Shown: one piece after another, positions 34,128 to 34,193 of the stretch
Numbering within the stretch: position 1 is the stretch's first letter
Layout of the letters: every line of letters starts with the position of its first letter
IMG/VR virus record: IMGVR_UViG_2923307698_000007
Coordinates: 1-51,851 of that record
Reading direction: 5' to 3' (one strand)
DNA: 51,851 nt
Origin: a virus
Taxonomy: Duplodnaviria; Heunggongvirae; Uroviricota; Caudoviricetes
Position numbers and translations under genes: made by a program
Notes under the pieces: generated by a model
Database searches by the model: none
Seen by the model: the letters and a program-made list of their open reading frames with translations, nothing else
Told to the model about the DNA's origin: nothing

Positions 34128-34193
34128 AAATAGAAACAGAAACAGAAATAGAAATAGAAATAGAAATAGAAATAGAAATAGAAATAGAAATAT
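34128..34193. repeat. Hexanucleotide microsatellite (AAATAG)n, 7 perfect plus about 4 degenerate units
   Basis: Perfect aaatag units 34146-34187 flanked by aaatag/aaacag/aaatat variants. Confidence 0.9.

Follow-up and report, generated by a model that had tools for sequence, protein, structure and literature searches.

Short AT-rich tandem repeats can act as genetic switches, as illustrated by the phase-variable promoter repeats upstream of Neisseria meningitidis nadA (TAAA) and between the -35 and -10 elements of Haemophilus influenzae hifA/hifB (TA). Other short repeats are better known as typing markers, such as the hexanucleotide loci O157-10 (TR2) and O157-3 (TR5) that are used in MLVA (the analysis, at multiple loci, of tandem repeats that vary in number) of Escherichia coli O157, which have 6-bp units, mutate in unit steps, reach high diversity indices and serve as neutral epidemiological markers. 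Here we consider a hexanucleotide variable-number tandem repeat (VNTR) of 11 units at positions 34128-34193 of a 51,851-nucleotide stretch of viral DNA (the window; Caudoviricetes, IMG/VR record IMGVR_UViG_2923307698_000007), to which no strand is assigned and for which the evidence comes from TRF, hexamer parsing, simulations, primer matches and published work. An initial annotation, made from the letters alone, had taken the tract for a possible switch of a neighbouring gene that encodes a protein of 590 residues (590 aa) and did not recognise that it is an already known typing locus, variously called VNTR-9, O157-9, Vhec4 and TR1. We put a probability of roughly 85% on the reading that the tract is the VNTR-9 microsatellite of lambdoid, Shiga toxin (Stx)-type E. 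coli prophages, a non-coding and selectively neutral hotspot of slippage that has no regulatory effect. Of this reading, the identity of the locus, its polymorphism in unit steps and its context have been shown, and the selective neutrality and lack of regulation are inferred.

The identity of the locus follows its published primers. Vhec4, TR1 and O157-9 are one locus under several names (PMC3768571; PMC3321953), which has been used in the MLVA schemes of Lindstedt 2003, Noller 2003, Keys 2005 and Hyytia-Trees 2006 (cited via PMC2246123, PMC3321953 and PMC3768571). The published unit of TR1 is AAATAG and its forward primer, as given in a primer table for O157 MLVA, is ACTGCATGATAAGCCTCAGG (PMC2246123); it matches the plus strand of the window exactly at 34036-34055. 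The PulseNet forward primer for VNTR-9, GCGCTGGTTTAGCCATCGCCTTCTTCC (PMC3321953), likewise finds an exact plus-strand site at 33918-33944, where it overlaps the start of an HNH endonuclease gene. Neither the TR1 nor the VNTR-9 reverse primer has a site in the window, even with up to three mismatches allowed, and in O157:H7 (loci L003, at 4140-4310, L004, L014, L017 and L031 of our comparison) both reverse primers sit inside the insertion element IS30. Those O157:H7 loci carry the window sequence through the left flank, the tract and 13 further base pairs, TAAAACAGACCAC (34194-34206, no strand), after which the left end of IS30 begins, such that by locus comparison the homology between the window and O157:H7 ends at 34206/34207. 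Since the left flank and the tract are shared and the reverse primers lie in IS30, the tract is orthologous in the two arrangements and the window represents an allele without IS30.

The likeness to VNTR-9 of O157:H7 thus comprises the AAATAG unit, an identical left flank with both forward primer sites, the neighbouring HNH endonuclease and ninG genes and a matching allele range (6-23 units published, 5-24 here). The difference lies to the right of the tract, where the window holds an intact, ancestral-looking island with the 590-aa gene, whereas in O157:H7 this gene is gone from the tract locus and IS30 stands in its place. The reciprocal arrangement is found in E. coli SMN197SH3 (L005, 3157-6075), in which one side of IS30 directly adjoins the right flank of the window, with the 590-aa gene but no tract, and the other side is next to tail-fibre and lom genes. 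This layout indicates that IS30 has mediated a rearrangement that involved different prophage regions. The form without IS30 should score as a null allele in the published polymerase chain reaction assays, and it may explain part of the VNTR-9 'null alleles' that have been reported. Of the fellow markers, O157-10 mutates about tenfold faster than VNTR-9 (combined rates of 1.8e-3 and 1.3e-4, respectively; PMC3777172), and the tract also differs from several other O157 MLVA loci in that those sit within open reading frames (ORFs). The left-flank anchor CATGAACTAAAGAAAAAAYCACAAC had no match in species-representative genomes, and the locus is thus absent from that set.

The tract is highly polymorphic. 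We compared 33 loci, with the invariant left flank and TAAAACAGACCAC as anchors, and found 14 length alleles of 5-24 units between invariant flanks. The set comprised 25 contigs from IMG/VR and two phage records, in addition to the window and loci from complete genomes. The strains 7_15_5C (L006), 96_1414P (L007) and RM8426 (L008) illustrate this well, with 24, 7 and 14 units, respectively, and the same protein accessions for the HNH endonuclease, NinG and the 590-aa protein. Among complete E. coli genomes (n=5426), the tract region is present in 523 and both flanks are present in 245, and the lengths of the place differ by multiples of 6. Units that interrupt the array are themselves duplicated (AAACAG twice in the window and AAATGG three times in locus L030), which is a signature of slippage. 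These data agree with published work, since 202 German O157 isolates carried 6-23 repeats in 15 alleles with a diversity index of 0.90 (PMC3321953) and serial passage yielded single-unit insertions at about 4.3-4.6e-5 per generation (PMC3777172). The proposals that the tract changes length by slipped-strand mispairing in whole units and renders the island length-polymorphic are therefore borne out, the copy number being anything but invariant among isolates. In the mechanism that we favour, whole 6-bp units would be gained or lost through slipped-strand mispairing during replication, probably at about 1e-5 to 1e-4 per generation, and this slippage would have generated the many alleles of 5-24 units on otherwise near-identical flanks.

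The tract is far above chance expectation. Hexamer parsing of 34128-34193 gives, in order, one AAATAG, two AAACAG, seven AAATAG and one AAATAT, in agreement with the seven perfect and about four degenerate units that had been counted before. TRF reports period 6 at 34128-34192, with 10.8 copies of the consensus AAATAG, 96% matches and a score of 116. The longest exact run of period 6 measures 49 bp (34144-34192), and in first-order Markov simulations (200 of the whole window and 500 of local AT-rich sequence) such a run never exceeded 18 bp. The motif as such is a generic microsatellite, as exact (AAATAG)5 occurs in many unrelated species (at least 120 species representatives among the matches listed). 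As to its setting, a stretch of E. coli HCP5S3_I4 is 99.8% identical and a matching stretch is present in the Stx1 phage SH2026Stx1, which assigns the tract to the nin region of a prophage that is lambdoid and resembles Stx phages.

Another scenario, that of the initial annotation, makes the tract a contingency locus: transcription of the 590-aa gene would be tuned or switched by the number of units, in the manner of the TAAA tract upstream of the nadA promoter. The tract is indeed hypermutable and lies upstream of the gene, in the 575-bp divergent intergenic region that separates it from the HNH start, with the tract's end 315 bp from the TTG start at 34509 (the distance had been put at about 320 bp). 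The gene, which is AT-rich and was acquired horizontally, may also have a link to virulence. In these respects it resembles the nadA and hifA/hifB repeats, which are likewise short, AT-rich and intergenic, sit upstream of an accessory, possibly virulence-related gene and mutate by slippage. However, those repeats reside within or immediately beside a core promoter or a regulator site that has been mapped, and their copy number alters expression, whereas here the tract is not placed in a -35/-10 spacer. A consensus scan of 33850-34600 returned a sole promoter-like site, a sigma-70-like candidate on the plus strand at 34379-34408 (TTGACG, an 18-nt spacer, TG and AATAAT; 10/12 matches), with the 590-aa ORF about 100 bp downstream. 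This is a consensus match and not a mapped start, and the scan gave fewer sites than in shuffled sequence. The candidate -35 element lies 186 bp downstream of the tract's end, and no promoter-like site lies in or beside the tract. Moreover, the tract stays with the HNH and ninG side of the junction and is equally variable in O157:H7, where IS30 cuts off and replaces the 590-aa gene (see also PMC3321953), and the alleles that are linked to the gene span 5-24 units with no preferred length visible. Nor is a microsatellite conserved upstream of the homologues in E. albertii (71% identity), Providencia (about 50%) and Salmonella (about 48%), none of which has one. The suggestion that the tract makes expression of the island gene phase-variable thus finds no backing in its distance from the only promoter-like site, in its polymorphism in O157:H7 without the gene or in the repeat-free upstream regions of the homologues, and we regard such a switch as quite improbable and control of the 590-aa gene by the tract as unsupported. 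Several points nonetheless weigh against a purely neutral tract. Consensus matching is a crude way to scan for promoters, and neutrality is something we infer. A 6-bp step turns the helical phase by about 206 degrees, which could affect a factor bound upstream, such as H-NS or IHF. In addition, all alleles seen have at least 5 units, which could reflect maintenance of the tract or simply a recent common ancestry of the prophages. An indirect effect through H-NS occupancy or the helical phasing of an upstream factor nevertheless seems hardly more than an outside chance. Similarly slim are the prospects of a combined scenario, in which the number of units affects how far the 590-aa gene is silenced or activated, for example through the phasing or extent of H-NS or of another factor bound upstream, and the gene encodes an unrecognised type III secretion system effector as a reverse-oriented moron in the nin region. 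If this were true, the VNTR-9 marker would also adjust, like a rheostat, the expression of a virulence factor in non-O157 Shiga toxin-producing and enteropathogenic E. coli.

The tract might instead act at the level of RNA or protein, although we consider either possibility very remote. On the plus strand (AAUAGA)n consists of perfect A-R-N triplets, the motif bound by the distal face of Hfq, and on the minus strand (CUAUUU)n would lie in the pR transcript upstream of HNH-ninG-Q. What speaks for such a role is the pattern of the sequence, together with the gene order, from which minus-strand transcription from pR is expected. However, upstream of the tract the scan gave no promoter-like site for the plus strand, the minus-strand transcript 34300-33934 folds no more stably than shuffled sequence (z = +1.0), with no structure apparent, and no Rfam family was found: a permissive search of 33800-34600 gave one match at chance level, SmY (E = 0.94). 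A terminator scan returned a weak 5-bp stem only (34077-34061, minus strand) and found no terminator downstream of the 590-aa gene. In the reading of a neutral microsatellite, transcription of the tract would be purely passive, within the minus-strand pR early-right operon. It is equally doubtful that the tract encodes dipeptide repeats of variable number within a genuine small protein on the minus strand. In every allele, two frames of that strand remain open over the tract, the 6-bp unit is a multiple of 3 and keeps the frame, and PGAP, the RefSeq annotation pipeline, annotates one of them in some genomes. These are a hydrophobic (Leu-Phe)n ORF of 85 aa (33993-34250), probably not a gene, and an (Ile-Ser)n ORF of 58 aa (34084-34260), probably an artefact that surfaces as a 'hypothetical protein'. 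However, a stop-free AT-rich repeat on the minus strand yields open frames automatically, neither ATG is preceded by a Shine-Dalgarno sequence by eye, and neither ORF has a match in Pfam or PHROG. PGAP restricts its calls of the (Ile-Ser)n frame to long alleles, each of which receives a fresh accession (1685-1939 in L006 and 1545-1739 in L008, both minus strand), which points to a length-threshold artefact. Variant units give contradictory signals, AAACAG being synonymous in the Leu-Phe frame and AAATGG in the Ile-Ser frame; such units are few, and the flanks are almost invariant. The initial annotation had dismissed the poly-Leu-Phe ORF as a product of the repeat, which appears reasonable given that it has neither a visible Shine-Dalgarno sequence nor a family match and that PGAP annotates another frame.

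The surroundings of the tract are those of a lambdoid early-right operon, which in the window runs on the minus strand through cro, cII, O, P, ren, ninB, a methylase gene, ninE, a gap, the HNH endonuclease gene, ninG, a Ser/Thr phosphatase gene and Q (31643-32131). The backbone gene ninE (36785-37057, minus strand; Pfam NinE) lies to the right of the island, and ninG (32790-33392, minus strand; Pfam NinG, 1e-82) lies to its left, just past the HNH gene. The latter (33367-33933, minus strand) encodes HNH_3 and AP2 domains, is assigned by Pfam, PHROG 99 and RefSeq annotation, and is the constant companion of the tract; similarity between its product and the window's own NinG was not detectable. 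The AT-rich island (about 29-39% G+C) fills the gap that holds ninF in other phages and carries a single gene, that of the 590-aa protein, antisense to the early-right operon. At 33905-33950, which covers the first ~30 nt of the HNH gene and 17 nt upstream, the window shares about 96% identity with the junction between ninF and ninG in many lambdoid phages, HK544, mEp234 and ST104 among them, and this match marks the left edge of the insertion. Judged from these alignments, ninF appears to have given way to the HNH gene and the island, at a boundary between modules that is conserved.

The 590-aa gene itself (34509-36281, plus strand, with a TTG start) is AT-rich, antisense to the early-right operon and defined by its ORF, family searches and homologues. 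It had been called an ORFan, a status that it loses through relatives in E. albertii (93% and 71% identity), in many serovars and subspecies of Salmonella enterica (about 48-51%) and in Providencia alcalifaciens (about 50%). The family is nonetheless tiny, with 18 matches in a profile search of 1.84 billion representatives. The Salmonella homologue resides in a chromosomal islet, flanked by a DUF218 gene and by a gene whose Pfam domains mark it as that of cytidine deaminase (cdd), and the E. albertii homologue adjoins genes for an NleF-like caspase-inhibitor effector and an AvrPphF-like protein. The protein has no match in Pfam, NCBIfam or PADLOC, the five distant or partial matches of the profile search that were scanned likewise show no Pfam domains, PHROGs offers only a family of unknown function, and a sequence-profile search of the PDB gave nothing below E = 0.1. 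AlphaFold2 with an alignment of 20 sequences reached a mean predicted local distance difference test score (pLDDT) of 39, a value at which the model is too poor for a meaningful fold search. Residues 1-50 are 34% Ser/Thr, and the host species of the family are all known to carry type III secretion systems. It is a fair guess that the protein may be an unrecognised effector of such a system, encoded by a reverse-oriented moron in the nin region.

Elsewhere in the window, 28244-32131 has the late layout of an Stx phage, with Q, a tRNA gene, a TerB-like gene, a DUF3927 gene and a SASA/NanS-p esterase gene; no stx genes lie between Q and the esterase gene in this interval. The late-region tRNA has the anticodon CAT and is annotated as tRNA-Ile in RefSeq and as Met by ARAGORN. 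Two further repeats reside within coding sequence. Gene O (39820-40758, minus strand) holds a repeat at 40334-40411 (39 bp x2, or about 20 bp x3.8, TCCCTC....GAGGGA), which we take to resemble the iterons of a lambda-type origin. In the structural gene region, a 461-aa ORF (16274-17659, minus strand) that has only weak Pfam matches contains a 162-bp tandem repeat (16743-17443), with 4.3 copies at 96% identity.

Taken on its own, the repeat adds little, as it has served for about two decades as a standard epidemiological marker of E. coli O157 and has been documented to be hypervariable; it is a real, strongly non-random and already known microsatellite, for which neutral slipped-strand mispairing is the most likely mechanism. 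For typing, the ancestral-looking form without IS30, seen in about 245 of the 5426 complete E. coli genomes, is relevant in that it has neither of the published reverse primer sites, and for annotation it matters that pipelines produce spurious repeat-encoded 'hypothetical proteins' over long alleles. Of more interest than the repeat is the 590-aa gene beside it, which represents a very narrow, uncharacterised enterobacterial family.
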